Shown here in pieces: positions 29,739 to 46,305 of a stretch of DNA of 64,000 nt. This DNA comes from Minisyncoccota bacterium. GTDB lineage: Bacteria; Patescibacteriota; Minisyncoccia; Phycocordibacterales; CAJBRS01. The number at the start of each line of letters is the position of its first letter. Position 1 is the stretch's first letter. The DNA lies in contig JADGRH010000002.1 in assembly GCA_017881075.1 (NCBI GenBank), positions 21,654 through 85,653 on the forward strand, given 5' to 3'. The notes under the pieces are model-generated. The model was given only the letters and a program-made list of their open reading frames with translations. It was not told the DNA's origin and made no database searches. Position numbers and translations under genes: made by a program.

Positions 29739-29753
29739 CGCCTTTCTATTATA

Positions 29754-31122: not shown

Positions 31123-31177
31123 CTAACCCATCACCTAGGGCAGAAAATTTACTGCTTCGGTGGTGGGTTTTCTGTTT

Positions 31178-33215: not shown

Positions 33216-33252
33216 GAGAATATTATAAACTATATTGTCTCGATATCACTGA

Positions 33253-33321
33253 TGGACGTGACGGGAATCGAACCCGTTCACTCCGAATGGTAGGTTCGGA
33301 GCGCTATCCAATAGCACGCCC
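33253..33321 (-). ncRNA. non-canonical tRNA-like gene 2 (69 nt); paralog of gene 1 with compensatory changes
   Basis: same architecture as gene 1; the 7-bp stem is CTCCGAA/TTCGGAG (was CCTCAAA/TTTGAGG) with the identical loop CCTACCA. Confidence 0.5.
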
Positions 33322-33406
33322 ATGATGTGAATTACCGTTCCACATCGACATAAATAATACATACAGCTAATAAAATAGATTGAAATAAAAGTTAAATTAA
33401 AAATAA

Positions 33407-33426
33407 AAACCGCATTTCTGCGGTTT
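33407..33426 (-). terminator. intrinsic terminator hairpin (AAACCGCA-TTTC-TGCGGTTT)
   Basis: seen directly; equivalent to 24332-24351. Confidence 0.65.
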
Positions 33427-33431
33427 TACTA

Positions 33432-33447
33432 GCTCCGAACCTACCAC
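33432..33447 (+). other. copy of the anticodon-arm 5' strand of tRNA-like gene 2 (GCTCCGAACCTACCAC), inverted relative to the gene
   Basis: complement of the corresponding segment in gene 2; covaries with module head A. Confidence 0.8.
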
Positions 33448-33453
33448 AACATA

Positions 33454-33481
33454 ATTATATTTCTTTACTTTATTTTGTCAA
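33454..33481 (-). promoter_or_regulatory. near-consensus sigma70 promoter on the minus strand (TTGACA-16-TATAAT), module head B
   Basis: identical to the promoter at 24379-24406. Confidence 0.6.
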
Positions 33482-33503
33482 AGCTTTTTATTTAAAAATT
33501 CTA

Positions 33504-33550
33504 CGTCGAAAGTCTGCTGATTTCGACGCGATTTTTACGCTTAAAAATCG
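33504..33550 (+). other. two adjacent perfect hairpins 5' of repeat R7
   Basis: identical to 24429-24475. Confidence 0.8.
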
Positions 33551-33578
33551 GCTGGGGGTCTGGTACGATGTTGGAACC
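33551..33578 (+). repeat. repeat R7 (consensus)
   Basis: seen directly. Confidence 0.9.
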
Positions 33579-33728
33579 TTTTTGACGAGTTTTACCCCCT
33601 AAGACCTTAAGATTCAATCCCTACCCACGGAGTAATTTATTTGACTTTCTAAGTATAGTATGGTAATGTTATCTTGAAACATTCCAATTGCAGGTAGCAA
33701 AAAACTTGCATAACCCGAGGACATTTAC

Positions 33729-34103
33729 ATGACCAAGAAAGTTCTTAAATTGCTGATTCTCGTCTCTATAGTGACTGTTGCCTTCATTGGCGGCCGTCTC
33801 ACCACTCCTCAGCCTCAAGTCGCTGACAATGCTGTGTATGAAAAAGCATGGCATTGGTGTGATGAACAAGCATTCAAGGGGCACGACGTAGCCTTCTTTG
33901 AACTTGCAAAGAAACAGATTCGAGCTCGCCAGATTCGCTGGAGCATCAACGATTCATCAGGGCTTCATTACAGCCTTCTCGTCTTGTTCGCCAAAAGCTA
34001 CGATGAGATGGTCGAGAGAGAATCCGTGACCCCCGAGGAGTTCGTTAAGCAAATAGCACCTGTTCTGAAGGAGTTAGCCAAGGCTCCTCGACCCTCAACT
34101 TGA
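33729..34103 (+). CDS. hypothetical secreted protein (cassette ORF)
   Basis: signal-peptide-like N-terminus; TTGACT-17-TAATGT promoter-like sequence upstream. Confidence 0.45.
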   Translation: MTKKVLKLLILVSIVTVAFIGGRLTTPQPQVADNAVYEKAWHWCDEQAFKGHDVAFFELAKKQIRARQIRWSINDSSGLHYSLLVLFAKSYDEMVERESVTPEEFVKQIAPVLKELAKAPRPST

Positions 34104-34168
34104 CCGCTTCAGTGCGAGACAAAAGCCAAACTGTCTTACGATGGGGCGGCTTTTTATTTAAATTCCTC

Positions 34169-34228
34169 GCTGTGGGTCTGGCCCGCCTGCCTAGCTACCG
34201 CAGGTGCGGGCAGGTACGATGTTGGAAC
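34169..34228 (+). repeat. repeat R8, carrying the 33-bp GC-rich hairpin insertion CCCGCCTGCCTAGCTACCGCAGGTGCGGGCAGG between TCTGG and TACGAT
   Basis: seen directly. Confidence 0.85.
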
Positions 34229-34300
34229 TTTTATTACCCACTTTCATGCTATTGACAAAATTACCACAATAAGGTATTATTCAGATAGGAAAGGACAAAT

Positions 34301-34495
34301 ATGAAAGAAGGTATTCTACTTCTCTTCCCCGTTCTCGGGCTGATTCCGCTTGTAGCCATGCTACTCTGGATCAAAAAGAAACAGGGTAAGGGACTGATGA
34401 TTCTCCTTAGCATCTTGATCTTTGCTGCCATTGTTTGGGCGTGTGTTCATTACCAAATCCGAATTTACGATAACGGCGGCTTGGGACTTTACTAA
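34301..34495 (+). CDS. small membrane protein (cassette ORF)
   Basis: 64 aa, two TM segments, terminator follows. Confidence 0.35.
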   Translation: MKEGILLLFPVLGLIPLVAMLLWIKKKQGKGLMILLSILIFAAIVWACVHYQIRIYDNGGLGLY

Positions 34496-34565
34496 GCGAG
34501 ATTCATTCCAACACGAGACGAGCTCTGACCACACAAGTCATCTCGTTTTTTATTTAAAATTCCTA

Positions 34566-34612
34566 CGTCGAAAGTCTGCTGATTTCGACGCGATTTTTAG
34601 GCTTAAAAATCG
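34566..34612 (+). other. two adjacent hairpins (third copy of the module-head leader) 5' of repeat R9
   Basis: the second hairpin loop is GGCT instead of CGCT. Confidence 0.8.
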
Positions 34613-34640
34613 GCTGGGGGTCTGGTACGACGTTGGAACC
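34613..34640 (+). repeat. repeat R9 (ACGACG variant)
   Basis: seen directly. Confidence 0.9.
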
Positions 34641-35482
34641 TATTTGACTGTAAAAATATCACTCACTAGCGAGGAATTATCAGAGAAATTTATATCTAAA
34701 TGATAAGCTCCAGGAGAAATACTCGTTGGAACCATCCAAACATAGGATTCCCCATGTACTCCAGCAGCAATTTTTGTTGGAATAGTGTCATGAAAATTGT
34801 CTTTAGGTTCAGCCTTCAGAAATATATCCGCGGTGTAATTATCTTCGGATGGCTTAGCCAACCATTTTAAAGTATAAGTTTGACCTCTAATAAATTCCGC
34901 TGCTACTTCAGGAAAAACAAATCTAGGATATGGAAAAAGTACTTCGTTAAGAGATACTTCTCCAACATACGGTAAAGTCAATTTTGAAACTAAATTGCCC
35001 TTAAGATCGTACCCTTGAATGTCTACTTTTGATACATGGATACCAACGGCAGATTCTAAAGCATTCCAATACCAGGATTGAGTTCCATCAAGCGCTGTGG
35101 CTTGCAGTTGTGCTGATCCTAATTGTTGAGATTGAGTTATCCCTGTTCCGGTTGGCCAACCATATATCTTTACACTCGCTAACCCTTTTCCATATATAAA
35201 CAGTTCAGGTTTACTTATTGTAAACTTTAAGAGAAAAGGTGTCACAGACACTGAAACGGTAGTAGTTGCAAAAGAATTAACTTGGGAATTGGTAGACGAG
35301 TTGTTTGAAGTAGATATTGTATTAAGCTGATCAGTAAATGTGGTTGAAGCTGTTAAAGAGACGCCATTATTTACTTGAGCACTTTTATTATGAATGTAAA
35401 TGTAAATTCCTCCGCCAATCGCCAAAGCAACAATAATGATAATCAAAAAAGGAACAACAAATCCTTTTTGGATATTTTTCAT
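34640..35482 (-). CDS. hypothetical secreted/anchored protein (cassette ORF)
   Basis: 280 aa, N-terminal TM, Ser/Thr-rich. Confidence 0.5.
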   Translation of the reverse strand: MKNIQKGFVVPFLIIIIVALAIGGGIYIYIHNKSAQVNNGVSLTASTTFTDQLNTISTSNNSSTNSQVNSFATTTVSVSVTPFLLKFTISKPELFIYGKGLASVKIYGWPTGTGITQSQQLGSAQLQATALDGTQSWYWNALESAVGIHVSKVDIQGYDLKGNLVSKLTLPYVGEVSLNEVLFPYPRFVFPEVAAEFIRGQTYTLKWLAKPSEDNYTADIFLKAEPKDNFHDTIPTKIAAGVHGESYVWMVPTSISPGAYHLDINFSDNSSLVSDIFTVK

Positions 35483-35516
35483 AATTAAAATGATATCACG
35501 AAATTAGCATTTTCTC

Positions 35517-35634
35517 GCTGGGGGTTTGGCCCGCCTGCCTAGCTACCGCAGGTGCGGACAGGTACGATACTCCCTGTTTGTTCAAGAGGCCTTGCGATTG
35601 ACTACAAACAGCAGTCCCCGTAGGGGGTTGGAAC
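35517..35634 (+). repeat. repeat R10, carrying both the 33-bp hairpin insertion and a 58-bp second insertion
   Basis: the second insertion, ACTCCCTGTTTGT...ACAAACAGCAGTCCCCGTAGGGG, is homologous to part of the R1 insertion. Confidence 0.85.
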
Positions 35635-35710
35635 TTTTTTGATGAGTTTTGGTACTTGACATAATACAGATATGTCATAAAGTCATATCAGAAATCAACT
35701 GGAAATACTT

Positions 35711-35947
35711 ATGGCACTAGCAACTACTCAAGGAAAAGAATTCGCCCTGAAAGCTCTTGGGGAAAGACGAGATCGTAACAAAACACGAGAACGAATCGAC
35801 AATACGGCATTACTCGCGGGTAGAGAAATGCATTTTGACTGCCTCGGCTGTGGGGATGACCTCATTGTCCCCGAAAATTATCTCAGGCGACCGAATTTAT
35901 GCGTGGAGTGTCAAGCACTCAAAACGTTGGGTTGGCTTGATCAATAA
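35711..35947 (+). CDS. hypothetical zinc-ribbon protein (CLGCG...CVEC)
   Basis: 78-aa ORF. Confidence 0.4.
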   Translation: MALATTQGKEFALKALGERRDRNKTRERIDNTALLAGREMHFDCLGCGDDLIVPENYLRRPNLCVECQALKTLGWLDQ

Positions 35948-35998
35948 GTATCAAGCGTTCCGTTAGCCGTCCTGTTGTGGCGGCATTTTATTTTTCTT

Positions 35999-36025
35999 GC
36001 TGGGGGTCTGGTACGATGTTGGAAC
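35999..36025 (+). repeat. repeat R11
   Basis: seen directly. Confidence 0.9.
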
Positions 36026-36052
36026 TTTTTTGGGAAATCGCTCAGAAAGTAG

Positions 36053-36430
36053 CTATAAATAGGTTCGGAGTTGTTCAACCGCACTATCAATTAATTCATC
36101 GTCGGGTACCACTTTTTCTAAAGCATCATAGATTGTAACTAGGCACTGAACCGCATCAGTTACCTTATCATTTGGATTCGGACCGAATTTACTTTCCAAG
36201 AAATGAACGACGTTGTTTTTCTCAATCGCTTCTATAATTTCTGTTCTTTCTTTTTCCATGTCCGCCTTCTCTGCAACGGTATGTTCTCCGCCAAGTGTTG
36301 CTCTAGGTGGTGTAGTCTGAAACAAATAGCTTTCCCTTAAGAGGGGCGTGACAAGGTTTCGAAATATTGGAGCACTCTCTGTAGAAGAGGTAACGCCATC
36401 ATTTTCTATTTCTCTTTCACGAAAAGTCAT
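36053..36430 (-). CDS. hypothetical protein (cassette ORF)
   Basis: 125-aa ORF. Confidence 0.45.
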   Translation of the reverse strand: MTFREREIENDGVTSSTESAPIFRNLVTPLLRESYLFQTTPPRATLGGEHTVAEKADMEKERTEIIEAIEKNNVVHFLESKFGPNPNDKVTDAVQCLVTIYDALEKVVPDDELIDSAVEQLRTYL

Positions 36431-36475
36431 AAATTTATAGTAGTAAAACTAGTAAATAAAAGCAAGATGTTTGAT

Positions 36476-36503
36476 GCTGGGGGTCCGGTACGATGTTGGA
36501 ACC
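36476..36503 (+). repeat. repeat R12 (TCCGG variant)
   Basis: seen directly. Confidence 0.9.
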
Positions 36504-36559
36504 TACATGACAGATAGACAAATAAAGCAAGGTGTGGTAAAAGTTATCACAGGTAAAAC

Positions 36560-36799
36560 ATGAGTGACGAAAACAAATGCAGTAATTGTGAGGCGCTCAG
36601 CAAGAGCAATTCGACAAAGCCAGCTGTACCCATGAATGGGACATGCAACGACATCTTGCATGAATGTCCTCTGGACGGACAGAAATGGTGGCAAATGAAT
36701 ACCCACTTTCATCTGTGGCAGAAAGTCAAAGATGACAAGCAATGGGAAGCGTTAAGAGAGGACCTTCGGCGACCGGTACAATCTGGTCACTTCTGGTAG
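36560..36799 (+). CDS. hypothetical Cys-rich protein (CSNC...C..C)
   Basis: 79-aa ORF. Confidence 0.4.
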   Translation: MSDENKCSNCEALSKSNSTKPAVPMNGTCNDILHECPLDGQKWWQMNTHFHLWQKVKDDKQWEALREDLRRPVQSGHFW

Positions 36800-36859
36800 G
36801 AAATGAATTTGGAGAGCTCGGATGACAACCCCTGCTCTCTTTTTATTTAAAAATTCCTC

Positions 36860-36887
36860 GCTGGGGGTCTGGTACGATGTTGGAACC
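36860..36887 (+). repeat. repeat R13 with the full extended context
   Basis: seen directly. Confidence 0.9.
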
Positions 36888-36951
36888 TTTTTAATGAATT
36901 TAAGCCATCAAATACCTAGGTTCGATACCTGCTCACCGAGTTTTGAAATAT

Positions 36952-37311
36952 CTATTCACCATCTCTAATTAAACGCACAAAGTAAGTCATTCCCTTTCCT
37001 ATATTTTGAGCTCTTTTATACCCAATCCCCATTAAAACTATATTAGCCATAACAGGTGGCTTTCCTTGATCTAAAATAACTGACTCCTCTGAAGCCCAGT
37101 AAGCACCTTCTTTAAAACCTTTTGTCTTTAATCTATCCGCCTCAAGAAGTTCCTCTGATGTAGGAAGTCTCCAAGGTTTTTCTCCTTCTGGTAGATTAGT
37201 GTTTAACTCTTCAATTATTCTGATGGCATCATCCCAATTTATACGAGTATCTATATCAATACCCCACTCTGACTTTAAGCTTTCTTGATTTGGAGTTCCT
37301 TCATTTTCCAT
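36952..37311 (-). CDS. DUF1566 (Lcl C-terminal domain)-like protein
   Basis: W-x-A...KPWRLPTSEEL pattern typical of the family. Confidence 0.45.
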   Translation of the reverse strand: MENEGTPNQESLKSEWGIDIDTRINWDDAIRIIEELNTNLPEGEKPWRLPTSEELLEADRLKTKGFKEGAYWASEESVILDQGKPPVMANIVLMGIGYKRAQNIGKGMTYFVRLIRDGE

Positions 37312-37346
37312 ATCTATTTATCATACCAAAAAAGTTCTAATAATTT

Positions 37347-37374
37347 GCTGGGGGTCTGGTACGATGTTGGAACC
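37347..37374 (+). repeat. repeat R14
   Basis: seen directly. Confidence 0.9.
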
Positions 37375-37391
37375 TTTGTTAGGATTTAGAC

Positions 37392-37706
37392 ATGGAATTC
37401 TTTCGTGAATCAGAACTAGATAAATTAATAAAAGAGCGAAATTCTAATGGCTGGGTTATGGCTGGATATGAGAAGTTAACAGTAACGAGGTTTCAGCCCG
37501 ATGCCAGATTTTTAGACGTGCCACTTCAGAGTGAAGATGATATAAAGAAAAAATATAAAAATGATGATACAGAAGTAGAACTAGTTTTAGCACCAAATCA
37601 TAAGTTAGAAGAAATTAGAAAAATACTTTCCCCTGAAGAATTTGCCAAAGCCTCTGTTCCTGATAGTGAGAAATCTTATTACGTATTCGTAAAAAAGAAA
37701 AATTGA
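37392..37706 (+). CDS. hypothetical protein (cassette ORF)
   Basis: 104-aa ORF. Confidence 0.45.
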   Translation: MEFFRESELDKLIKERNSNGWVMAGYEKLTVTRFQPDARFLDVPLQSEDDIKKKYKNDDTEVELVLAPNHKLEEIRKILSPEEFAKASVPDSEKSYYVFVKKKN

Positions 37707-37708
37707 TT

Positions 37709-37736
37709 GCTGGGGGTCTGGTACGATGTTGGAACC
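37709..37736 (+). repeat. repeat R15
   Basis: seen directly. Confidence 0.9.
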
Positions 37737-38020
37737 TATTTAGACTCTTTATTCATTTCGTCTCTCTCGAGTGCGTCCCCATCAATTGCGTCCAATAATT
37801 GACCCAACTCAACATTGCTCCAATCTTTATAAACGGATTTTTGCTGATTTTCATTGTCAGCTCCACGACTCCAAGCCTCAATGTCATTTCTTGTTTTTGT
37901 GTATATTTCGGGACTTATCTTCCTTACAGTTGCTAATTGCCTTACTTTTTCCCAAAATTCGTCAGTAGAAATCTCAGCCATATTTTCTATTTCATTTGGA
38001 TCATTTTCTCTTGATTCCAT
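37736..38020 (-). CDS. hypothetical acidic protein (cassette ORF)
   Basis: 94-aa ORF. Confidence 0.4.
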   Translation of the reverse strand: MESRENDPNEIENMAEISTDEFWEKVRQLATVRKISPEIYTKTRNDIEAWSRGADNENQQKSVYKDWSNVELGQLLDAIDGDALERDEMNKESK

Positions 38021-38126
38021 AAGGATAATTTAAGTTATGTTTAATATTTTTATTATACCAGATTCACCCGTCCTATTCTTATCTATTTTTAAATGGCTAA
38101 TCTAAAAGAGATTTTAATGCTTCCTC

Positions 38127-38154
38127 GCTGGGGGTCTGGTACGACGTTGGAACC
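38127..38154 (+). repeat. repeat R16 (ACGACG variant)
   Basis: seen directly. Confidence 0.9.
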
Positions 38155-38169
38155 TTTTTGACCTGAGTG

Positions 38170-38388
38170 CTATGCCTTACGCCATTGATTTGGCTTTCCC
38201 TTGTTAGTATGCCGAACTCGCTCAACGTCAGGTCGTACGCCCGGAAAAAGCTTTTGAGCTTTAGCTATAGCTTTTGCCTGCGTAGGAGCAACAACGGAAG
38301 CGCGCTTTGAGTGTTCTTGCCTCACAGCATAATCTTTCTCTTCTGATCGTCGTTCTATGTATACATCTCCCTTTCTTAATTTAGTCAT
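38170..38388 (-). CDS. DUF2188-like small protein
   Basis: DVYIERRSEEKDYAVRQEHSKRAS...TQAKAIAKAQKL pattern resembles DUF2188. Confidence 0.45.
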   Translation of the reverse strand: MTKLRKGDVYIERRSEEKDYAVRQEHSKRASVVAPTQAKAIAKAQKLFPGVRPDVERVRHTNKGKPNQWRKA

Positions 38389-38394
38389 AGCGAT

Positions 38395-38751
38395 TTAATT
38401 AATATGATTCGCCTCCGCTTGTTGTTTTGCTAATTCATTAATGGCAATTATGTTTGCGCCAAACCCTGTTCTATAATGTTTACTCCGAGAGCTCCTTTTG
38501 AACAAAAACTTAGTAATTTTCTCTCTACCTACTAACGGTGCAATCTTTTTATCTTTTCTAGGGTCGTCCCACATTGAAACTACTTCCCACCCCACAGCAC
38601 CCAACTCGTTCAGCATTAAGTTAAAATATTCTCTTTTGTGTTCTAAATTCTTGTATTCTTTTGAGTCGTAGTCATGCTCATCAAACTCTTCGTTGCTAGG
38701 ATTGAACATCCCGTGTACTAAGTACTCAAAACTCTGATCTAGAAATTTCAT
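38395..38751 (-). CDS. hypothetical protein
   Basis: 118-aa ORF, 6 bp downstream of the previous gene. Confidence 0.45.
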   Translation of the reverse strand: MKFLDQSFEYLVHGMFNPSNEEFDEHDYDSKEYKNLEHKREYFNLMLNELGAVGWEVVSMWDDPRKDKKIAPLVGREKITKFLFKRSSRSKHYRTGFGANIIAINELAKQQAEANHIN

Positions 38752-38774
38752 AACATTGAGTATACCAAATTCTT

Positions 38775-38806
38775 TTGACGGATGTCTGGGACAACATTGG
38801 GACCCA
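38775..38806 (+). repeat. degenerate repeat R17 (GACGGATGTCTGGGACAACATTGGGACCC)
   Basis: about 65% identity to the consensus in the expected position. Confidence 0.6.
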
Positions 38807-38825
38807 TTAGAGACATAGAATTTAA

Positions 38826-39035
38826 TTAATTTATTTCTTCAGCCTTCTCGCCGTACAACTTCATACTTTGAGCCTGTAAAGCTTCCAACGAATTATACTG
38901 ACCAACTACCTTCATTGGGGTCAAATATGGCAAATGATGTGAGGTTCTATCGTCTTCCATTTCATAGATAGGATGTATTAGAATGAAATCATCGCCCATT
39001 TTTCTGTAGCAAGGTTTAGCTAAGGGTTGTGTCAT
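38826..39035 (-). CDS. hypothetical protein
   Basis: 69-aa ORF. Confidence 0.35.
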   Translation of the reverse strand: MTQPLAKPCYRKMGDDFILIHPIYEMEDDRTSHHLPYLTPMKVVGQYNSLEALQAQSMKLYGEKAEEIN

Positions 39036-39076
39036 ATCTAAACTCTACAATAAAAAATAATGTTTAAAAAGTGTGG

Positions 39077-39104
39077 GCTGGATGTCTGGTACGATGTTGG
39101 AACC
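39077..39104 (+). repeat. repeat R18 (GCTGGATGTCTGG variant)
   Basis: seen directly. Confidence 0.85.
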
Positions 39105-39135
39105 TGTTTGTATCAAAAGTGATATAATCAGAAAT

Positions 39136-39591
39136 ATGACTGATAATAAAGAAAATACAGGCGTAACACTGACACCAGCTCAAACTGTTGATCTATTAAT
39201 GAGGCTTTATGATGCTAGATTTAACTATATGCCAGATGGCACTGTTCAAATTGATGTTAAAGTGCAAAATCTTATAGAAGAACTTGCGACAAACGCCGAA
39301 AAATCTTTTGGTCATGTAAAAGATGCTCAAGGAAAGAGTGTTTTTGGTGAGGCTTACGAGAAATATCGTAAAGGTCAAGATGCTATATTAAAAATCAGCG
39401 ATTTAGTAGTTTTAAATCCTAATGCTACGGCTTCTGATAAACAAGTTCATATAGAAAAAATATTAAAACTTAGTGAGACTGTAACAGGTAGATTATTCAT
39501 TCAACAAAGTATAGATGAATTTAAGACCGTAACGGGAGTCGATTTGAGTGAAAATATTAAAGCAATTCAAAAACTTTCTGACCATAAATAA
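39136..39591 (+). CDS. hypothetical protein (cassette ORF); start moved downstream of the repeat
   Basis: the ORF track opens at 39073 inside the repeat; MTDNKENT is the first Met after it. Confidence 0.45.
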   Translation: MTDNKENTGVTLTPAQTVDLLMRLYDARFNYMPDGTVQIDVKVQNLIEELATNAEKSFGHVKDAQGKSVFGEAYEKYRKGQDAILKISDLVVLNPNATASDKQVHIEKILKLSETVTGRLFIQQSIDEFKTVTGVDLSENIKAIQKLSDHK

Positions 39592-39647
39592 TTTTGTTAT
39601 AAATTACAATGTATAATCAGTTAAATTAACAAGCTATGTTTGCAACA

Positions 39648-39673
39648 CTGTGGGTCTGGTACGATGTGGAACC
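39648..39673 (+). repeat. repeat R19 (CTGTGGGTCTGGTACGATG-TGGAACCC; 1-nt deletion)
   Basis: seen directly. Confidence 0.8.
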
Positions 39674-39686
39674 CATATCAATAATT

Positions 39687-40004
39687 TTATTTCCAGGGGA
39701 GGCCCTTCTGAATCAAAATATAGGGTAAATAACCGGTTATTCCATAAAAAGCTACAATAAGAACTAGAAAATCTCCGATCTCTAAGGTGGTGAAAGAATG
39801 TATCCTCCAAAATATAAAATAAGCTAAGGCAATCCACCCCACTAATGAACCAATGAAATTTAGGATCCACTGACTCATACGTAATGGCCATGGAAAATCT
39901 CTCCACTTTTTCAGAGGCAGTCCATGAATTGTGGGGGTAAAGTATGTAATAAGAAAACTGGAAAGGATTGCAACTGCCCAATATGTTATATAAATAGAAG
40001 TCAT
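39687..40004 (-). CDS. membrane protein (cassette ORF)
   Basis: 105 aa, 3 TM segments; preferred over the overlapping 39634-39981 frame. Confidence 0.4.
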   Translation of the reverse strand: MTSIYITYWAVAILSSFLITYFTPTIHGLPLKKWRDFPWPLRMSQWILNFIGSLVGWIALAYFIFWRIHSFTTLEIGDFLVLIVAFYGITGYLPYILIQKGLPWK

Positions 40005-40046
40005 ACGTTATTAGTTATTATATCAAGATTCTAATTTGAAAATACT

Positions 40047-40076
40047 GCGTTGGGGGTTTGGGACGACGCTGGATCC
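40047..40076 (+). repeat. degenerate terminal repeat R20 (GCGTTGGGGGTTTGGGACGACGCTGGATCC)
   Basis: seen directly; last copy of the array. Confidence 0.7.
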
Positions 40077-40085
40077 TTTTTGAGG

Positions 40086-40577
40086 TTAACTCCAGATTTC
40101 ACTAGCTCTAGGTTCAAATTGTCTTAATATCTTTAGATAGTCTGCCTGAATATTCTGCTCGGCCCATTTAGGATACAACTCTCCTATTTGCCCATTTTTC
40201 ATCGAAATCTCATTACATGGCCCAAAAAAGAAGCCGTCTGGCGAGGCAATGAAAAGCCATGAGGGGTTCCACATTTTTAGAATGTCGTCCGTAATTTCTT
40301 TTATTTTACTTGGATCACGTCTAGTACAGAATTTAACTTCTACCAAATATACTTCTTTCTTATCCTGAGATATCAAGACAAAATCAGGAGCATTTCTTAT
40401 ATTTTCAAGAACGGCTTTTACTTCGGCTAGGTGTTGATATTGAGCAAGTTCCGGTAGTGTATATTCATAACCGGATCTGAGAATCGTATATTTCCCTGAT
40501 TCCCGAAACATTTGTTCAAAAATAGTTTCAGCGATTCTCCCTTTTATTAACTCTTTTGTAAATTCAATTTTATTCAT
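40086..40577 (-). CDS. PD-(D/E)xK nuclease-fold protein
   Basis: APDFVL...VYLVEVKF matches the PD...ExK catalytic core arrangement. Confidence 0.45.
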   Translation of the reverse strand: MNKIEFTKELIKGRIAETIFEQMFRESGKYTILRSGYEYTLPELAQYQHLAEVKAVLENIRNAPDFVLISQDKKEVYLVEVKFCTRRDPSKIKEITDDILKMWNPSWLFIASPDGFFFGPCNEISMKNGQIGELYPKWAEQNIQADYLKILRQFEPRASEIWS

Positions 40578-40588
40578 TTGGGTCTGGA

Positions 40589-41278
40589 TTACTCAATGCC
40601 ATCTAACATAGTCTGACTTAACGATATCGGCTTAGCTCCCGCAATATGCATAGGTTCTCGAATATCAAGAGCCGGATTTACTTGTGAAGGAATTCTAAAT
40701 GATATCGACATGACACCAATTACTTTATTGGACTCGATATCAATCAAAGGACATCCGCTATTTCCCGGATTACTTATCGCGTCTACGATAAACCAATCAA
40801 GTGGGTTCGGTGCTTGTGCTTTTCGTTTTACAGAACTGATTATTCCCTTATTCGCTATTAAGGTTAGGCCGAACCCGTCTTTTAACAAATTTACTGCATA
40901 AGGAAACCCAATGAAGTAAACGTCCTGACCCTCAACAATTGACTCGGAAAATTCTATTTTCAATGGCTTCAATAAATTAGGTTGAGTATTTGGTTTTAAT
41001 TTTAAAATGGCCATATCGTTTTCAAGAGCTTTTGTTTGGACCTCTACATTAAACCAATTATATTTTAGAAGATGACCTTCAGTTTCAGAAGCCACCATAC
41101 AGCCTAAATTAGTTAATTGATCTGGACTAAAATTTTGAATCAAATGGGCGGTTGTTAAGATAAATTGATTACTATGTACACAAAAACCACTTCCAAGAAT
41201 ATTCAATTGGCCATTATTAAGTGTGCCAACCGCTACGATGGAATTTATTACATCTTTTATATCACTCTTTAAGTTCAT
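40589..41278 (-). CDS. trypsin-like serine peptidase
   Basis: GSGFCVHSNQFILTTAHLI (His region) and GNSGCPL (Ser region) motifs. Confidence 0.6.
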   Translation of the reverse strand: MNLKSDIKDVINSIVAVGTLNNGQLNILGSGFCVHSNQFILTTAHLIQNFSPDQLTNLGCMVASETEGHLLKYNWFNVEVQTKALENDMAILKLKPNTQPNLLKPLKIEFSESIVEGQDVYFIGFPYAVNLLKDGFGLTLIANKGIISSVKRKAQAPNPLDWFIVDAISNPGNSGCPLIDIESNKVIGVMSISFRIPSQVNPALDIREPMHIAGAKPISLSQTMLDGIE

Positions 41279-41281
41279 AGT

Positions 41282-41500
41282 TTATTTAATTGTATTATTA
41301 ATAATAGCCGGACTATCTACGTTTGTGGCGTTATTAATAATATTTTGTGTGCCAATATTATTAATAATGTTATCACCATTTTTATTTTTTTGCTTGGAGA
41401 GATTCTTTTTATAAATGCTGATGCCTGTAAGGCCAATGAGTCCTAGAGTTATCCCTGCGGCGACAGAAGCAATATAGTTTACTAAGATAATTTCAATCAT
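41282..41500 (-). CDS. small membrane protein with Asn/Ile-rich tail
   Basis: 72-aa ORF, one TM segment. Confidence 0.3.
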   Translation of the reverse strand: MIEIILVNYIASVAAGITLGLIGLTGISIYKKNLSKQKNKNGDNIINNIGTQNIINNATNVDSPAIINNTIK

Positions 41501-41554
41501 GGCTACCTATAATACTAAGAGGGCTTTATCTAATATGCAGATAATAAAGTACTA

Positions 41555-41869
41555 TTATCCATTTGTCCACCACGCACCTAGATTAGACCAAAAGACCATT
41601 ATGAATCCAATGATGATTAAAATTATCCCATACACTACGGATTTAAATAGGATAAAGAAGCCGAGAAAAATTATAAAAGATGCCCAGACCCCCATCTTCT
41701 TCCATTTCTTAGCTGTTTGTTCAATCTCTATCACTTTTACCACCTCTACCACCTTCTTGTCTTCCTTAGCCTCAGTAGACTGAGGATGGATCGGATTACC
41801 ACAGGAGATACACGCACTTGCTTTGTCTGATATCTCTTTTCCACATTCTGAACATTTTATAAGCGACAT
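41555..41869 (-). CDS. zinc-ribbon plus TM small protein
   Basis: MSLIKCSECGKEISDKASACISCG followed by 2 TM segments; start taken at the internal Met. Confidence 0.35.
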   Translation of the reverse strand: MSLIKCSECGKEISDKASACISCGNPIHPQSTEAKEDKKVVEVVKVIEIEQTAKKWKKMGVWASFIIFLGFFILFKSVVYGIILIIIGFIMVFWSNLGAWWTNG

Positions 41870-42414
41870 AAATTTTATTTGCTTAATAGATTTATAAATA
41901 CAAAAAGCCCACCACGGGTAGTGGCCGAAGCCACTCAAACCGGTTTCCCGATAAGGCTGGATACAGCAACCCCATGATGGGTTTTTTATGCTGTATCCAG
42001 ACTTTTCGCCATGCCAACAATTTCTCATTGGTTTAGGCCATATTCAGTTGTAGATAAATTATAACACTAAAATAAGAAAATCTTGACTTGCAATTACTTT
42101 TACGAGGAGTAGAATCGTCGTTAATCAGGGTTCCCCAAAGAGGGATACTAGGAGGATATATTGCCCCACCCATTGTTTAGTTTTATCAGTTTCTTAACTA
42201 ATACAAGGCGGGGTGTTTTCTTTTTCCTCACAACTTATTGAGGAGACAATAAAAGTTTTTCGTGAAGAGAACGATCTAGAATTGTCTCCAGAGAAAGCCA
42301 ACGAATATTTAAATGCGTTTGCTGGCTTGTTTTTGGCGTTTCGGGATATGCCCGCAAGCCCGAGCTCTTTAGAGCCGGGCGGCGGGCTTCCGGACGACAA
42401 TCAAGACGATTCAA

Positions 42415-42439
42415 CCCTAGGTGTTAGTAACACCTAGGG
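42415..42439. promoter_or_regulatory. perfect 25-bp palindrome CCCTAGGTGTTA-G-TAACACCTAGGG, 19 bp upstream of the Rep-like gene
   Basis: 12-bp perfect arms; candidate operator or origin/nick hairpin. Confidence 0.5.
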
Positions 42440-42457
42440 TACGTTGCATATTGCACC

Positions 42458-43501
42458 ATGATAGACACCATTAAATTTTTAATACCAATGAAAGATCATA
42501 AACTCTTTGAACAACTAAAAGGCAACCTAATGCGATTCAGGAAAGATGATTTAAAAACTGGAAAAATGGAGTTTGAATTTTTCAGTAGCAATATTGAACT
42601 TGGCTCCTATCAGCGTTCAGTTGCCATAAAATCAACTGATGTACCCCAAGGATTCTTCATTGAATTTTCGGTCCCGAAGTATGCCAAGGGAAATAACGTG
42701 GAGATGATTTATCCGCATGACCTTCCTGATATTATGGCGAAACTTTATGAGGAATTATGCAACCACATGAATTACCGGCTTCTGCATTTCTCTCTATGGC
42801 CAATATATCGCCTTGATGTCTGCTACAACTGGATTTTCAAAAATGAGAGTGAGGCGGTCTATGCTATGGATTTTCTAAGGAGAATTGATTTTCCTCGCAA
42901 GAAAAAATACACCTATGACACCTCGGTTATGCATAAAGGCAGTGCTTACACCATAAAGTTTTATGCCAAAGGGCCAGAATTTAAAGCCCATGATTTTAAG
43001 AAAATTGAATTTAATCATGCCCTTAGTCTTCAGTCTTGGGCAGATCGGATAGTCCGGTTTGAAGTGAATTTGAAACGAATCTACCTACAGCAGTTTTTTC
43101 TGCTTGATGTAGTGTATATGAAAGATGTCGTTGATGATGAAAGCATTTTGGAAATCCTTAAATATTATTTGGAGAAAAAAGTATTTTTCTATCTTAATGC
43201 AAATTCTATGACTGATGAGAGCATAAAGCAGATATTGTTTGATAACTTTACCAAAATAAAAGCTACCCGCCTTTACCAGTTCTACAAGGATTTTTATTTT
43301 AGCGATGAGATGAAAAACATGCTTCTGCGGGGTGGCCTGAACAGAAGCACCATCTACCGATACAAGAAAGATTTAAAGAGGGTGGGTATAGGCATTTCAA
43401 TGGAAAAGTCGCCAAGTAGTATTAACATTTTAGAGCAGTTAGTCATTCCGTCCCCGAACTCCCGCTTTGATTTAATTGATTATCAATTTAAGGAAGTATA
43501 A
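42458..43501 (+). CDS. hypothetical protein, possibly a Rep_trans-type replication initiation protein
   Basis: 347 aa; loose similarity to the Rep_trans pattern (Y..K...RFE.NLKR); lies next to the serine recombinase. Confidence 0.3.
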   Translation: MIDTIKFLIPMKDHKLFEQLKGNLMRFRKDDLKTGKMEFEFFSSNIELGSYQRSVAIKSTDVPQGFFIEFSVPKYAKGNNVEMIYPHDLPDIMAKLYEELCNHMNYRLLHFSLWPIYRLDVCYNWIFKNESEAVYAMDFLRRIDFPRKKKYTYDTSVMHKGSAYTIKFYAKGPEFKAHDFKKIEFNHALSLQSWADRIVRFEVNLKRIYLQQFFLLDVVYMKDVVDDESILEILKYYLEKKVFFYLNANSMTDESIKQILFDNFTKIKATRLYQFYKDFYFSDEMKNMLLRGGLNRSTIYRYKKDLKRVGIGISMEKSPSSINILEQLVIPSPNSRFDLIDYQFKEV

Positions 43502-43511
43502 TATTGCCAAT

Positions 43512-45047
43512 ATGAAATTCATCATCTACTGCCGAAAATCAACAGACAGCGAAGATAGACAGGTTCTTTCTTTGGAATCTCAAGAAAACGAACTTAAACG
43601 ACTTGCTGAAACTAATGATCTAAAAATTGTTTCCATTTTTCGGGAGAGTATGTCGGCCAAAGAGCCGGGCCGTCCAGTATTCAATGACATGATGAAAATG
43701 ATTCTCTCTGGAAAGGCTGACGCAATTCTGTGTTGGAAGATAGATCGTCTTACTCGTAATCCTGTTGATGGTGGGCAGATTCAATGGTTGCTTCAGACTA
43801 ATAAAATAAATTGCATTAGAACTTTTGAAAAAAGTTTCTACCCGAATGACAATGTCCTACTGATGAGCATTGAACAAGCCATGGCTAGTCAGTACATCAG
43901 GGATTTGAGTGTGAATGTTAAACGAGGTAATCGGGAGAAGTTAGCCAGAGGAGAGTGGCCTAATCATGCTCCTTTCGGATATTTGAATGATAAGGCCAAT
44001 AAGACTATCGTTGTTGATCGGGCTAATTCTAAATACGTTTCTAGAGTATATGACCTCTATGTTAATAATCATAAAAACTTTAAGGAAATTTCATCTTTTC
44101 TTCATAACGAGGGTTTGAGGACAAAGTCTGGTGGGAAAGTTATGAAAAGTCACATTCAGAGAATTCTCTCCAATCCATTTTATTCCGGTATCATGCTCCG
44201 AGAAGGAAAATATTATCAGGGCAACCATGAGCCGTTAATTCCGAAAAGTGTCTTCGATCAAGCCCAAGAAATTATGCAAGGAAAACTGCACCCTAAATCA
44301 AAACGATTATTCTTTCCACTCCGAGGATTCCTCTCTTGCGATAACTGCGGTTGTTCTCTCACTTCCTCCCTCAAAAAAGGCCACCAGTATTACTACTGCA
44401 CTAACGGCAAGGGTAGCTGTGAGGAACACAAAAGCTATCTCCGAGAAAACCAGCTTTATGGCGTGGTCGCCAATATCCTCGCCAATATTGATTTTACCGA
44501 GCCAAAGATTGAAAAAATGTATCAAGCGGCTAAGGAGAAATCTGACTTTGAGAGTGGGTATATCATTCAGAACTTAAAGACCCTAGAGACACAGCTAGAA
44601 TCGCTTAAAACGAAAGAATCTCGCCTTCTAGACACCTTCCTAGCCGAGCAGATACCGAAAGACCTTTACGATCAAAAAACTTTAGAATTGCAGAATGAAA
44701 AATTCTCACTAGAAAAAAGGATTAAAGAGTTTAAAATCCAACAACCCGCTTTTACTTTGGAACCGATTAAAAGTATGTTTCTGGAAGCCAGTAGAGCCAA
44801 AGTAGCATTTCTTAACGGAGATGATTACAAGAAAAGAAAAGTGATAGAAAATTTTGTTTGGAACTTATCGCTGAAAAACAAATCTGTGGCTCAAATGAAA
44901 CTCGTCGGGCCTTATGAAGTGATGTTCAAAGCACCTAAAAACGGCAGTATGCGTGAATTGCTGGGGGTCTGGGACTCGACCCGAGCTTTTATTGAGTTGG
45001 GCCGCTGTAGGGAGGGAGATATAACATTGGATCAAGGTATCCGTTAA
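43512..45047 (+). CDS. large serine recombinase
   Basis: resolvase catalytic domain IYCRKSTDSEDRQVLSLESQ (active-site Ser), recombinase domain, zinc ribbon CDNCGC...YYYC, C-terminal coiled coil. Confidence 0.85.
   Translation: MKFIIYCRKSTDSEDRQVLSLESQENELKRLAETNDLKIVSIFRESMSAKEPGRPVFNDMMKMILSGKADAILCWKIDRLTRNPVDGGQIQWLLQTNKINCIRTFEKSFYPNDNVLLMSIEQAMASQYIRDLSVNVKRGNREKLARGEWPNHAPFGYLNDKANKTIVVDRANSKYVSRVYDLYVNNHKNFKEISSFLHNEGLRTKSGGKVMKSHIQRILSNPFYSGIMLREGKYYQGNHEPLIPKSVFDQAQEIMQGKLHPKSKRLFFPLRGFLSCDNCGCSLTSSLKKGHQYYYCTNGKGSCEEHKSYLRENQLYGVVANILANIDFTEPKIEKMYQAAKEKSDFESGYIIQNLKTLETQLESLKTKESRLLDTFLAEQIPKDLYDQKTLELQNEKFSLEKRIKEFKIQQPAFTLEPIKSMFLEASRAKVAFLNGDDYKKRKVIENFVWNLSLKNKSVAQMKLVGPYEVMFKAPKNGSMRELLGVWDSTRAFIELGRCREGDITLDQGIR
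44960..44975 (+). repeat. half-copy of the array repeat (GCTGGGGGTCTGGGAC) inside the last 90 nt of the serine recombinase gene; identical to the left half of R1
   Basis: 16/16 nt identical to 24476-24491. Confidence 0.7.
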
Positions 45048-46305
45048 CGGCAGCGATAGGGAGACGGTATGTGCGGCCGCCGCAGGCTTTGCTGGGAAGG
45101 TTTTGCATTGAGACGGCGGCGGAAGCGTAAACGCTTAAGTGAAGATGTGGACCGGTGGCATAGCCGGTAGAGCCGCTATAGCCAATAACATCGCCGCGAT
45201 GAACTAGCTGCCCTTCTTTAACTGAAATAACGGATAAGTGGCCATAAGTGCTGGCCAAGCCATTGTTATGACGGATGAAAACAAATCGGCCAAAAGAAGC
45301 GCCCGGACAGACCAGATCTGTGTCAGCTGCACCTTCCACCTTGCCGTCTGCTACAGCCATGACTTTTGTGCCGACCGATGCACCAAAATCAACACCGTTA
45401 TGTGAGCCGGAAACATAAAGTCGAGCTGAGGCGTTGGTGACGCCGAAAAGTTGGGTAATGCGAATGCTGGCGAGTGGCCAGGAAAGCGGTGACGAGCCAA
45501 CTTTCGGCAAGCTTGCAGGATTTAATATAAATTGGAGTTTGGATTGAAAATCAAAAAGATCTTTTTCAAAAGCTGCTTTTTTGGCTTGTTTATCGGCGAT
45601 GATTTGTTGATAAGTTTTTTCCTGATTCTTGGTTTGTGTTAGTAATTGAGTTTGTTGTTGTTGATTATAAGCAATAGCTTTTTTCTTATCGGATAGGTTC
45701 CCCTCATAACTGACCAAATTAGTTTTTTGAGTTTCTGTCTGACTTTTATCATTCTCGAGACCTGCCTTTAAATTTTCCAATTCATTCACTTGATCTTTCA
45801 CTCTACTTTGGAAACGCAACAAGTCGTCAATGCCATTCCAAATTTCTCCAACGCTCTGGTGACTTAGAAAGGAAACAATAATACTGGCTGATTCATTTTG
45901 TTGCATTTGGCGCATCGCTTCACCGATGGCTGCTCGGCCGTCGATAATATTTTGCTGTTCATCAGTAATCTGAAGACCTAGTTTTTGAATATCAAGGTTC
46001 GCCGCCGCAATTTTATTTTCAGTCAATTTGATATCGGCATCCAATTTTTTCTGAGAGGCCTGCAGGGTGGCGATAGCATTCTGAAGAGTTCTGGCGGCAG
46101 CACTGGTTTTGTCGGCCAAGGCCTGATATTGGGCGATCTCTTTTTCCAATTCGGCGATGTTGACATTTCGTTCATCAATCTGTTTTTGGAGATCGCTGGC
46201 ATTATCGGCATGAACTGGAAGGGGCGGCAGGCGGACGAATAAAACGCCTGCCGCTGCCAAAAGAAAAAGAAGAAAAATTATTTTATTTGATTTTTTGAAT
46301 GGCAT
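44989..46305 (-). CDS. M23 family metallopeptidase with a coiled-coil N-domain (EnvC-like)
   Basis: HNGVDFGASVGTKV...GYSGSTGYATGPHLH M23 motifs; long coiled coil. Confidence 0.75.
   Translation of the reverse strand: MPFKKSNKIIFLLFLLAAAGVLFVRLPPLPVHADNASDLQKQIDERNVNIAELEKEIAQYQALADKTSAAARTLQNAIATLQASQKKLDADIKLTENKIAAANLDIQKLGLQITDEQQNIIDGRAAIGEAMRQMQQNESASIIVSFLSHQSVGEIWNGIDDLLRFQSRVKDQVNELENLKAGLENDKSQTETQKTNLVSYEGNLSDKKKAIAYNQQQQTQLLTQTKNQEKTYQQIIADKQAKKAAFEKDLFDFQSKLQFILNPASLPKVGSSPLSWPLASIRITQLFGVTNASARLYVSGSHNGVDFGASVGTKVMAVADGKVEGAADTDLVCPGASFGRFVFIRHNNGLASTYGHLSVISVKEGQLVHRGDVIGYSGSTGYATGPHLHLSVYASAAVSMQNLPSKACGGRTYRLPIAAVNGYLDPMLYLPPYSGPTQ

Follow-up and report, generated by a model that had tools for sequence, protein, structure and literature searches.

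Genes and repeat blocks of the window

The window, which is the whole stretch of 64 kb that was analysed, carries on its forward strand a gene for a large serine recombinase (LSR; 43512-45047, 511 amino acids from its ATG) with Pfam Resolvase, Recombinase and Zn_ribbon_recom domains. The N-terminal resolvase catalytic domain (PF00239, 75.8 bits, residues 16-161), whose D-R-L-x-R motif is invariant in alignment A1, is followed C-terminally by PF07508 (55.9 bits) and PF13408 (26.2 bits), both above their cut-offs. The reading frame is intact and of full length, suggesting recent activity. Homologues of the LSR number 3498, mostly from Patescibacteria, with 367 loci in representative genomes, and a search of IMG/VR with the LSR profile yielded no relatives. 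Exact look-ups of the LSR protein and of the neighboring M23 peptidase returned matches from the source sample only; therefore, no sister strains are at hand. Directly upstream of the LSR gene lies a rolling-circle Rep gene of the Phage_CRI/gene II-X family (42458-43501, forward strand), and this Rep-LSR pair recurs in 10 other loci. A LOOT RNA (RF03000, 82 bits; 41920-42039, reverse strand) precedes the pair and is also found upstream of Rep/LSR in L084, L016 and L012, the LOOT region being conserved in about 10 loci by blastn. The LOOT RNA is a recurrent part of these LSR/Rep elements. Further open reading frames of the element encode a trypsin-like peptidase, a zinc-ribbon protein and two proteins without Pfam matches. 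An inovirus prophage was rejected by Pfam analysis, in which the gene II-type Rep (PF05144) was found and a pI/Zot-like morphogenesis ATPase was not among the element ORFs. The right flank of the insertion is a host M23 peptidase gene (44989-46305, reverse strand), assigned from Pfam and from the synteny of relatives. In three relatives (L082, L083 and L241), the M23 gene is directly followed by AsnB, and in a fourth (L242) one small gene lies between them; the M23-AsnB spacer of the relatives is ~18-24 nt long and free of tRNA genes.

To the left of the element, repeat and half-site searches delineated two array blocks on the forward strand. Block A comprises repeats R1-R6 (24476-27392), in which the R half of R1 is interrupted by a structured insertion of ~110 nt, and its right end is a sequence resembling the 3′ half of tRNA-Gln, GCTGGGGATTAAGGAC/TCGAACCTTTGAAAGT (27777-27808, forward strand; here and below, a slash marks the boundary between two arms), which abuts the MgsA stop codon. 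Block B (33551-40048) contains about 13 cassettes separated by full repeats with L and R halves, mostly with one small ORF each on the minus strand. Both blocks open with a 300-nt module on the reverse strand that ends at a tRNA-like 3′ end (24173-24472 for copy 1 at block A, 33248-33547 at block B). The two modules are near-duplicates with 88% identity, and that of block B contains a promoter, a short RNA and a tRNA-like gene. Both blocks also close in the same manner, 13-16 nt beyond the boundary between the L arm and the chromosome-side arm (B′), at a host stop codon, and both right ends in the window resemble the 3′ half of tRNA-Gln. The region between the blocks (27809-33215, reverse strand) encodes MgsA, a LexA-like S24 peptidase, an MBL-fold protein and AsnB. 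It shows 71-74% nucleotide identity to the closest relative, L082, with the same order and orientation, and L082 continues AsnB-LexA-MgsA...DEAD helicase. As the Pfam assignments and the synteny with L082 identify host backbone, a 6.2-kb "cassette" at 27366-33550 was ruled out. Because the backbone is collinear with that of relatives, the blocks represent two separate arrays or insertions.

The half-site in the recombinase gene and its tRNA register

An earlier note on this DNA had observed that a 16-mer in the 3′ end of the LSR gene equals the beginning of R1, and an exact search of the 64-kb window confirmed this: GCTGGGGGTCTGGGAC occurs at 24476-24491 and at 44960-44975, 16/16 with no mismatch in either copy. 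With up to two mismatches, 16 matches were found in the window, all on the forward strand between 24476 and 44975, where shuffled sequences would give 0.02. When half-sites were counted separately, the window contained 20 L halves and 17 R halves, and all array repeats were directly oriented. The array repeat of ~35 bp consists of an L half and an R half; the copy at 44960 is an L half only, and it is the sole canonical L half in the window without an R half (GATGTTGGAAC) downstream. It is followed by TCGACCCGAGCTT (44976-44988, forward strand), the chromosome-side arm, which abuts the stop codon (44989-44991) of the convergent M23 gene. The right end of block A at 27777-27808 is a second, diverged half-site of the same kind. 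The 44960 site falls within the last codons of the LSR gene: the L half begins at codon 484 (44961-44963), the L arm lies inside codons 484-489, encoding LGVWD, and the last 24 codons past the junction are host DNA antisense to the 3′ end of the M23 gene.

The variant GGGAC in this L arm had been described as confined to R1 and, in degenerate form, R20, with GGTAC as the canonical form. It is not confined to them, as the degenerate copy at 38780 also has GGGAC, and GGGAC is the majority form (158/174) among the related sites on 85 metagenome contigs. In that set, the exact 16-mer ranks second among the L variants (12/174). Since it is a common variant of the repeat family, the identity between R1 and 44960 is not a signature of pairing. 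Across the 174 metagenome sites, conservation spans about -9 to +25 (~35 nt), which delimits the conserved site and not the cut within it; serine integrases use short att sites (~40-50 bp) that cross over at a central dinucleotide. No attC-like hairpin was found across the repeat, single-strand DNA fold z-scores being -0.9, -1.9 and +0.9 in three repeat contexts. In an Rfam search, the repeat matched no family, and the only hits were LOOT, one tRNA and two sub-threshold tRNA-like matches. A 20-mer shared by 33 viral and 35 metagenome contigs was set aside as an unrelated coincidence; it is a coding motif, VWDDVGTFDGRPWRG, which, in the single contig inspected (the high-GC phage contig L098), lies in a C5 cytosine methylase gene.

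Judged from its sequence, the L arm is a mimic of the acceptor and T-stem (3′ end) of a tRNA-Gln, and the arm at 44976-44988 looks like the decayed rest of a T-loop and T-stem when set beside the intact tRNA-Gln of L182 (GCTGGGGGACTAGGAC/TCGAACCTAG). Prediction of tRNA genes in the window gave none at this 13-nt stub. The link to tRNA genes is clear in the relatives of the LSR. Their C-termini diverge past residue ~484, and in 60 of the 78 LSR copies in GTDB genomes an antisense tRNA gene starts, with its 3′ end, 3 nt before the end of codon 484, tRNA-Gln being the commonest target among the tRNA-overlapping copies. A junction within the 3′ end of the recombinase gene, thought unusual in the earlier note, is hence the norm for this family. 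Relatives that are integrated and show both of their ends measure 4.4-8.7 kb, and direct repeats of ~15-30 nt that start at the codon-484 position bound them in 7 loci. In those that target a recognised tRNA, the direct repeats cease to be identical inside the T-loop, at the same place as GGGAC/TCGA here. Circular forms are also present: a single circle of 6,521 bp is represented in two samples by its circular permutations L085 and L086, and L076 has a 55-nt terminal overlap. All three have a single full L+R site, the attP, at the 3′ end of the LSR gene. Among close LSR homologues, 8 of 119 end in VW(Y/F/D)(D/E)VGT, which is the translated full repeat, and joining the L arm of the window to any R half in silico restores a tail of this type.

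The repeat occurs in at least 85 metagenome contigs, with up to 9 sites per contig. Cassette units are as short as 227 bp. Of the 31 repeat-bearing metagenome loci with a length of 4 kb or more, 11 have an intact tRNA-Gln gene to the right of the last repeat, at a distance of 70-1500 nt (6.9 kb in L238). In contigs of this kind, the tRNA-Gln beside the array keeps a host-specific 3′ end and the L halves of the array are of the common type; simple serial insertion at the tRNA does not explain these host-specific ends. L153 represents a reciprocal hybrid, in which a tRNA-type L is joined to R, and in L021 the LSR gene ends in a full site and has more cassettes to its right. A 954-nt unit lies between two repeats in L126, and L235 has a single repeat at the same place. 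In this polymorphism, the L arm segregates with the left flank over positions -9 to +6. For cassette junctions, this ruled out a crossover at the left extremity of the L arm, by which tRNAs would have stayed unaltered. The arrays have the appearance of cassettes that were mobilised by an LSR and accreted in tandem.

A probable integration junction and its alternatives

The 16-mer at 44960 is most probably the element-side arm of the attachment site of its own LSR, lying in an attR-type junction at the end of the Rep+LSR element and of block B. Two proposals of the earlier note gain support here: that the half-copy is an att-type recombination junction, and that the array repeat and the recombinase-proximal sequence are the same site. 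As the att site directly follows the last conserved LSR codon (~484), attP includes the tail of the gene. Free circles have an L+R site and encode an LSR protein that ends ...VW(D/Y)DVGT.... Upon integration, the cut would fall near the L/R boundary ("AC"), after which the L arm would remain on the LSR gene, joined to chromosomal DNA, and the R arm would go to the other end of the element. The L arm mimics the 3′ acceptor/T-stem of tRNA-Gln, the target most often used by the family, and the chromosomal partner here is only a ~13-nt tRNA-like remnant beside the M23 stop codon. Because this arm is only 13 nt long and absent from relatives, it may have come with the insert and may not be a native attB.

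The junction at 44960 would close a Rep+LSR element of ~4.9 kb as well as block B. Its likeliest partner is R20 (GTTGGGGGTTTGGGAC/GACGCTGGATCCTTTTTGA; 40049-40083, forward strand), the proposed attL, a probable assignment that draws on several features. R20 is the nearest repeat upstream of 44960, 4.9 kb away, and the implied size falls within the range of integrated relatives. In L060, a homologue of ORF163 occupies the corresponding relative position; a search for the left direct repeat of that element, meant to show that ORF163 is the leftmost gene, did not find one. Joining the L arm at 44960 to the R half of R20 in silico gives an LSR tail of ...VWDDAGSF.... R20 has two mismatches in L and three in the R core, and given this divergence the element may be immobile, or 44960 may have its true partner at another position. 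Farther left, the full repeats would be junctions of tandemly accreted units, each bringing an L+R site, and most of these units would be tiny single-gene cassettes without a recombinase, presumably mobilised in trans. LSRs normally do not recombine two like sites, and, given this usual behavior, the arrays of like sites speak against the explanation, as do the host-specific 3′ ends of the tRNA-Gln genes beside arrays.

A more tentative possibility is integron-like gene capture by an LSR in CPR bacteria. The 44960 site would then be an active docking junction analogous to attI, the site would be a double-strand site of ~35 bp with its left arm a tRNA-Gln mimic in the LSR tail, and hundreds of tiny single-gene cassettes would move in and out in trans beside tRNA-Gln genes. 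Growth of the array at 44960 itself, the L+B′ site being an attI-like recipient equivalent to attB that new L+R circles enter, is somewhat unlikely. Sharing of the L arm makes attR (L+B′) equivalent in sequence to the original target and attL (L+R) to attP; L021 has cassettes to the right of an LSR with a full 3′ site, and the hybrids of L153 and the window are reciprocal products. However, nothing is inserted to the right of the LSR in the window, and the 3′ ends of intact tRNA-Gln genes beside arrays stay host-specific, which argues that common-type cassettes enter internal L+R sites and not the tRNA junction. An attI-like recipient appears compatible with the attR-type junction preferred here.

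Arrival of the blocks ready-made, with their tRNA-like right ends and left module, by homologous or illegitimate recombination or through an unknown mobile "landing pad", would make 44960 a fossil junction from another genome, and this is judged unlikely. The short, tRNA-free M23-AsnB spacer of relatives, the shared 300-nt left module and the closure of both blocks 13-16 nt past L/B′ at a host stop codon favor such a route, but it requires a hypothetical insertion mechanism, the intact, full-length LSR gene suggests recent activity, and the route would account for the arrival of the blocks and not for the nature of the site.

In the earlier note, R1 and 44960 were proposed as attL/attR-like termini of a single ~20.5-kb element that would hold the whole array, the Rep-like gene and the recombinase. 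The 16/16 identity, including the locally rare GGGAC, and the direct orientation of all repeats would fit such an element, but the proposal is refuted by synteny and is very improbable: MgsA, the LexA-like gene and AsnB at 27.8-33.2 kb keep the order and orientation of L082, M23 and AsnB are adjacent in L082, L083 and L241 and one small gene apart in L242, R1 belongs to a different array block, which closes with a tRNA-like right end of its own, both GGGAC and the exact 16-mer occur commonly across the repeat family, and elements of relatives measure 4.4-8.7 kb. The attI-like recipient would seem closer to the truth. There is likewise hardly any likelihood that the 16-mer is kept only as code for the LSR C-terminus (LLGVWD), with the repeats as 3′ remains of decayed LSR genes; the repeat shares the reading frame of the LSR and some homologues end in VWYDVGT, but tails past ~484 are unconserved as protein and translate the local tRNA (e.g., DLESNQD, DRDSNPN), no LSR remnant lies in cassette sequence to the left of the L halves, units go down to 227 bp, and cassettes are present or absent exactly at the repeats.

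Relation to known mobile systems

In the literature that was searched, nothing relevant turned up on LSR cassette arrays of CPR bacteria or on the LOOT motif. By analogy, the arrays appear to resemble SCC composite islands, and the likeness to integrons appears only loose. In SCC/SCCmec of Staphylococcus, Ccr LSRs serve tandem units between short direct repeats, many of which lack a recombinase, and the target site is regenerated at one end, so units accrete. The window likewise has an LSR and tandem, mostly recombinase-free units between short direct repeats, and here too renewal of the target site at one end would let units accrete. However, its LSR scores 79-87 bits against the NCBIfam models of CcrA, CcrB and CcrC, whose cut-offs are 700-900, and is not a Ccr orthologue. 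SCC inserts in the 3′ end of rlmH/orfX, whereas the flanks here are M23 peptidase and AsnB or MgsA, with a tRNA-Gln-like target; the 3′ end of the recombinase gene itself contains the att arm, the units are much smaller (0.2-1 kb), the host belongs to Patescibacteria, and a rolling-circle Rep and LOOT RNA accompany the recombinase.

Islands that target tRNA genes (IMEs/CIMEs) copy the tRNA 3′ end as direct repeats at both ends, keep the integrase beside the tRNA and form tandem arrays, most known cases using tyrosine integrases. The tRNA overlap (60/78) and the direct repeats in 7 loci place the relatives close to such elements, but the enzyme here is an LSR whose reading frame crosses the site, the array units are single-gene cassettes, and the tRNA in the window is cut down to a 13-16-nt stub. 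Reviews of the general concept of such islands are PMC5704250 and PMC7192596. The long one-orientation arrays of small, mostly single-ORF cassettes with a conserved site between them, the recombinase at one array end and the presence or absence of cassettes at sites recall integrons. Unlike integrons, whose IntI is a tyrosine recombinase, the only recombinase here is of the serine type and sits inside a Rep-bearing mobile unit at the array end, the ~35-bp site is of a double-strand type and hairpin-free in contrast to attC, and a common promoter is not evident. SSV1-type integrases are tyrosine recombinases with attP inside the int gene, which integration splits in two. The attachment site here also overlaps the integrase coding sequence and integration alters the gene, but only the unconserved tail past codon ~484 is swapped and the enzyme stays intact. 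The closest solved structures are SPbeta SprA and other phage large serine integrases (E about 5e-14), which share the three-domain architecture; the similarity is distant and their targets differ, and, to our knowledge, no cassette arrays are known for them.

For a very large, uncharacterised family of CPR serine recombinases, in which the LSR tail is exchanged upon integration, the locus offers an att-site layout of L arm, crossover and R arm that is concrete enough to test. It also links widespread cassette arrays of metagenomes to tRNA-Gln and these LSRs, and assigns the orphan LOOT RNA family to a defined mobile element. If the LSR moves the cassettes, organisms whose genomes are tiny would possess a counterpart of integrons or SCC islands that runs on a serine recombinase, and the system would offer new, compact serine integrases whose sites are defined.

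Half-site at 44960 and its repeat family

The 16-mer GCTGGGGGTCTGGGAC is found at 24476-24491, in the first array repeat (R1), and at 44960-44975, with 0 mismatches in the window search, confirming the identity reported in the earlier note. Allowing up to two mismatches gave 16 matches, all on the plus strand from 24476 to 44975 (0.02 expected from shuffles). When the left (L, GCTGGGGGTCTGGTAC) and right (R, GATGTTGGAACCTTTTTGA) halves of the ~35-bp repeat were searched apart, 20 L and 17 R copies were found in the window, and the only canonical L with no R after it was the 44960 copy; next to it come TCGACCCGAGCTT and the stop codon of an M23 peptidase gene in convergent orientation. This site is contained in the final codons of the large serine recombinase (LSR) gene (43512-45047), which encodes a 511-aa protein with Resolvase, Recombinase, and zinc-ribbon domains; the L half begins at 44960, 3 nt before the end of codon 484 (44961-44963). 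The LSR gene is preceded by a gene for a rolling-circle Rep (Phage_CRI; 42458-43501), by LOOT RNA (RF03000; minus strand, 41920-42039), and by four ORFs on the minus strand that include genes for a trypsin-like peptidase and a zinc-ribbon protein. Full L+R repeats lie to the left of this Rep/LSR unit, irregularly spaced (227 to 6201 nt), and their intervals contain mainly one small minus-strand ORF each. Three of the repeats carry small structured insertions (24492-24606, 34184-34216, and 35532-35623): R1 has a ~110-nt insert at GATG^TTGG, the repeats at 34169 and 35517 have a 33-nt hairpin at CTGG^TAC, and the latter has an additional 58-nt insert related to that of R1. These insertions part L from R close to the inferred crossover and may inactivate the R1, 34169, and 35517 sites.

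A metagenome scan for the 20-mer core of the repeat yielded at least 120 contigs. Sixty-eight listed matches, including all 33 viral ones, were discarded as coincidence on the basis of a high-GC coding context common to all, which in L098, the single contig inspected, belongs to a phage C5 cytosine methylase gene. In the loci L088-L120 and ~35 metagenome loci, the 20-mer reads GTCTGGGACGA(T/C)GTTGGAAC, and its in-frame reading within conserved high-GC coding DNA is VWDDVGTFDGRPWRG; it was judged a coincidence there, although the identical peptide motif is curious. AT-rich contigs among the matches listed number 85 with 174 sites (40 with at least two, maximum nine), and the consensus of these listed sites is TTGCTGG(C/G)N GTCTGGGACGATGTTGGAAC(C/T)TTTtT. 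GGGAC is the majority form (158/174 listed sites) and also occurs in an extra degenerate copy in the window (GGATGTCTGGGACAACATTGGGACC, 38780-38804), outside the twenty counted repeats, so that it is not, as previously supposed, a variant specific to R1 and repeat R20 (40049). The exact 16-mer is the second commonest L variant (12/174 listed sites). Since both the 16-mer and GGGAC are common in the repeat family, the identity of R1 and 44960 holds no special pairing information.

Two insertions in one host backbone

In the closest relative available, L082, whose M23 is 67% identical to that of the window, the gene order is gltX-M23-AsnB-x-x-LexA-MgsA-...-DEAD helicase. The window without its repeat-bearing DNA has the same order and orientation, with 71-74% nucleotide identity. 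The gap from M23 to AsnB is ~18-24 nt in L082 and two other relatives (L083 and L241), and one small unrelated gene separates the two in a fourth, L242. Because the backbone is collinear with these relatives once the repeat DNA is removed, the window holds two separate insertions, block A (~24173-27808) between SWIB/DEAD helicase and MgsA, and block B (~33240-44985) between AsnB and M23. The earlier note had suggested that a single ~20.5-kb element might run from R1 to 44960; this reading is refuted by the collinear host genes that the two insertions flank.

Those host genes occupy the 6.2 kb enclosed by the repeats at 27350 and 33551, encoding MgsA, a LexA-like S24 peptidase, an MBL-fold protein, and the asparagine synthase AsnB. 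The interval was rejected as a cassette because it encodes conserved host genes in L082 order. As the bracketing repeats are full and in direct orientation, a 6.2-kb circle with the MgsA-AsnB genes (27366-33550) could formally be excised by cassette-type recombination. The MBL-fold gene (29889-30746, plus strand) matches the anti-Pycsar Apyc1 family (96.8 bits), and in L082 its place is taken by two small unrelated ORFs.

The same 300-nt module opens both blocks, and each ends with a tRNA stub, absent from the relatives. Both right ends resemble the 3′ half of tRNA-Gln (compared with, e.g., that of L182, GCTGGGGGACTAGGAC|TCGAACCTAG): block B ends as GCTGGGGGTCTGGGAC|TCGA-CCCGAG, and block A as GCTGGGGATTAAGGAC|TCGAACCTTTGA, in which AAGG/CCTT forms a coherent T-stem. 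In both, 13-16 nt are left past the L boundary, with a host stop codon adjoining. A second half-site, not picked up by the repeat search, closes block A (27777-27808, GCTGGGGATTAAGGAC|TCGAACCTTTGAAAGT); it is a well-formed tRNA-Gln T-arm and acceptor fragment that stops exactly at the MgsA stop codon.

The modules (24175-24400 and 33250-33475, minus strand) each contain a perfect TTGACA-17-TATAAT promoter that would drive a short terminated RNA. The 5′ 14 nt of this RNA (GGTAGGTTTGAGGC / GGTAGGTTCGGAGC) are the exact complement of the anticodon arm of a tRNA-like gene ~110 nt downstream, which has a 7-bp anticodon stem and Rfam tmRNA matches below threshold. Three differences separate the two copies of this complementary pair, each mirrored in both the RNA 5′ end and the anticodon arm, i.e., covariation.

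att sites in the LSR family

A search for LSR homologues gave 3498 at E<=1e-20, the named ones being Patescibacteria/Parcubacteria. Conservation extends to ~residue 484 (...PKNxxxxxLL), with divergence beyond, and most tails, (G/P/R)D(L/R)(E/D)SN(Q/P)(D/N), are a tRNA T-arm translated in antisense. In representative genomes, 367 relatives were found and 79 loci kept; an antisense tRNA gene is present at the LSR copy in 60/78, its 3′ end starting 3 nt before codon 484 ends, which is exactly where the window L half begins. tRNA-Gln is by far the most frequent target; the others are tRNAs for Ser, Leu, Ile, Trp, Tyr, Lys, Val, Pro, and Gly. Seven integrated relatives with both ends visible (L012, L020, L033, L038, L064, L075, and L078) are 4.4-8.7 kb long and flanked by a direct repeat of ~15-30 nt beginning at the codon-484 position. 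In those with recognised-tRNA targets, repeat identity stops within the T-loop (GGATT^CGAA), corresponding to GGGAC^TCGA and GGTAC^GATG in the window. From these sequences, the LSR family places its att site in the 3′ end of its own gene. The 44960 half-site is an ordinary consequence of this architecture, and a junction in the recombinase 3′ end is not the unusual feature that it had been taken for.

The full repeat is found at the same position in other homologues: 8 of the 119 closest end in VW(Y/F/D)(D/E)VGT, which is what the full array repeat encodes in frame, and joining the window L arm to any array R half gives a ...LLGVWDDVGTF... tail. Two contigs from different samples, L085 and L086, represent the same 6,521-bp circle opened at different points; it contains HTH, Rep, LSR, and cargo including a CD-NTase, and its only full site is at the LSR 3′ end. 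Contig L076 (5,751 nt, 55-nt terminal overlap) behaves in the same way. Because circular relatives and homologue tails carry the full repeat, L+R is the site of the free element (attP), and L joined to other DNA is the recombinase-end remainder after integration. The L arm itself mimics the tRNA-Gln 3′ end. An intact antisense tRNA-Gln gene lies right of the last repeat in 11/31 listed loci of at least 4 kb, at 70-1500 nt (6.9 kb in L238), and contig L153 has a hybrid of tRNA-type L and R, the reciprocal of the common L and tRNA-type right arm in the window.

LOOT RNA also occurs in relatives (L084, 693-816; L016, 8536-8648; L012, 4870-4985), on the strand opposite to Rep/LSR and ~0.4-1.5 kb upstream. 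As it recurs across elements of differing att specificity, this orphan Rfam family is a core part of the Rep/LSR element family, where it could serve as an origin or an antisense regulator. Free or contig-length relatives carry defence-type cargo, namely a CD-NTase (SMODS/DncV-like) with AGS_C in L085/L086, and a BglII-type endonuclease with a C5 methylase in L084.

Cassette turnover and a proposed mechanism

Two metagenome contigs, L126 and L235, match at 96% identity to the left and right of one repeat, where L126 has an extra 954-nt unit between two repeats and L235 a single repeat (L126 72-1045 vs L235 115-134). Since the flank-specific bases -9 to -1 and a G/A difference at core +6 travel with the left flank, the exchange point would lie right of +6, at or after "AC", matching where repeat identity stops in tRNA-targeting relatives. 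In contigs L127 and L239, a common cassette is 93% identical and its right-hand neighbours differ; L021 has one cassette in two copies and an LSR with a full site mid-array. Cassette units are thus gained or lost one by one at the repeats, through an enzyme that may be the LSR.

The end of the LSR gene is one arm of its att site, with L+R in free relatives; integrated relatives have L at both ends and a tRNA at the recombinase end. In the proposed mechanism, the ~4.9-kb unit from R20 (40049) to 44975 would be the Rep+LSR element, inserted when its attP crossed over, near "AC", with a tRNA-Gln-like site. The attP reconstructs as GCTGGGGGTCTGGGAC + GACGCTGGATCC..., with a ...VWDDAGSF... tail. 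This unit is supported by its size, which is within the family range, by an ORF163 homologue in the equivalent position in L060, and by Rep-LSR homology to L027, L074, and L018 spanning its right part. As target and element share the L arm, attL would resemble attP and attR would resemble attB, and such substrate-like products would let further units dock, leading to tandem accretion. Cassettes, which are as small as 227 bp and have no recombinase remnant, would be mobilised in trans. Beside intact tRNA-Gln genes, the arrays carry common-type L arms; as the neighbouring tRNA keeps its host-specific 3′ end, common-type cassettes probably enter at internal L+R sites. Such entry would need like-site recombination, which is unusual for LSRs. 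The Rep+LSR element may be fixed in place, as R20 has diverged.

Among known systems, this one behaves most like SCC composite islands and tandemly accreted tRNA-targeting islands. Its likeness to integrons is confined to the appearance of the array; the window system has neither a tyrosine recombinase nor a hairpin site. The enzyme is a bona fide LSR, and comparisons rejected it as a Ccr, XisF, or SprA orthologue. An inovirus prophage was also rejected: Rep is present, with no morphogenesis gene and no IMG/VR relatives. Within the literature collection searched, LSR-associated cassette arrays were not described from CPR bacteria, which is weak evidence of absence. The interest lies in the LSR-family architecture and its arrays, more than in the half-site itself.
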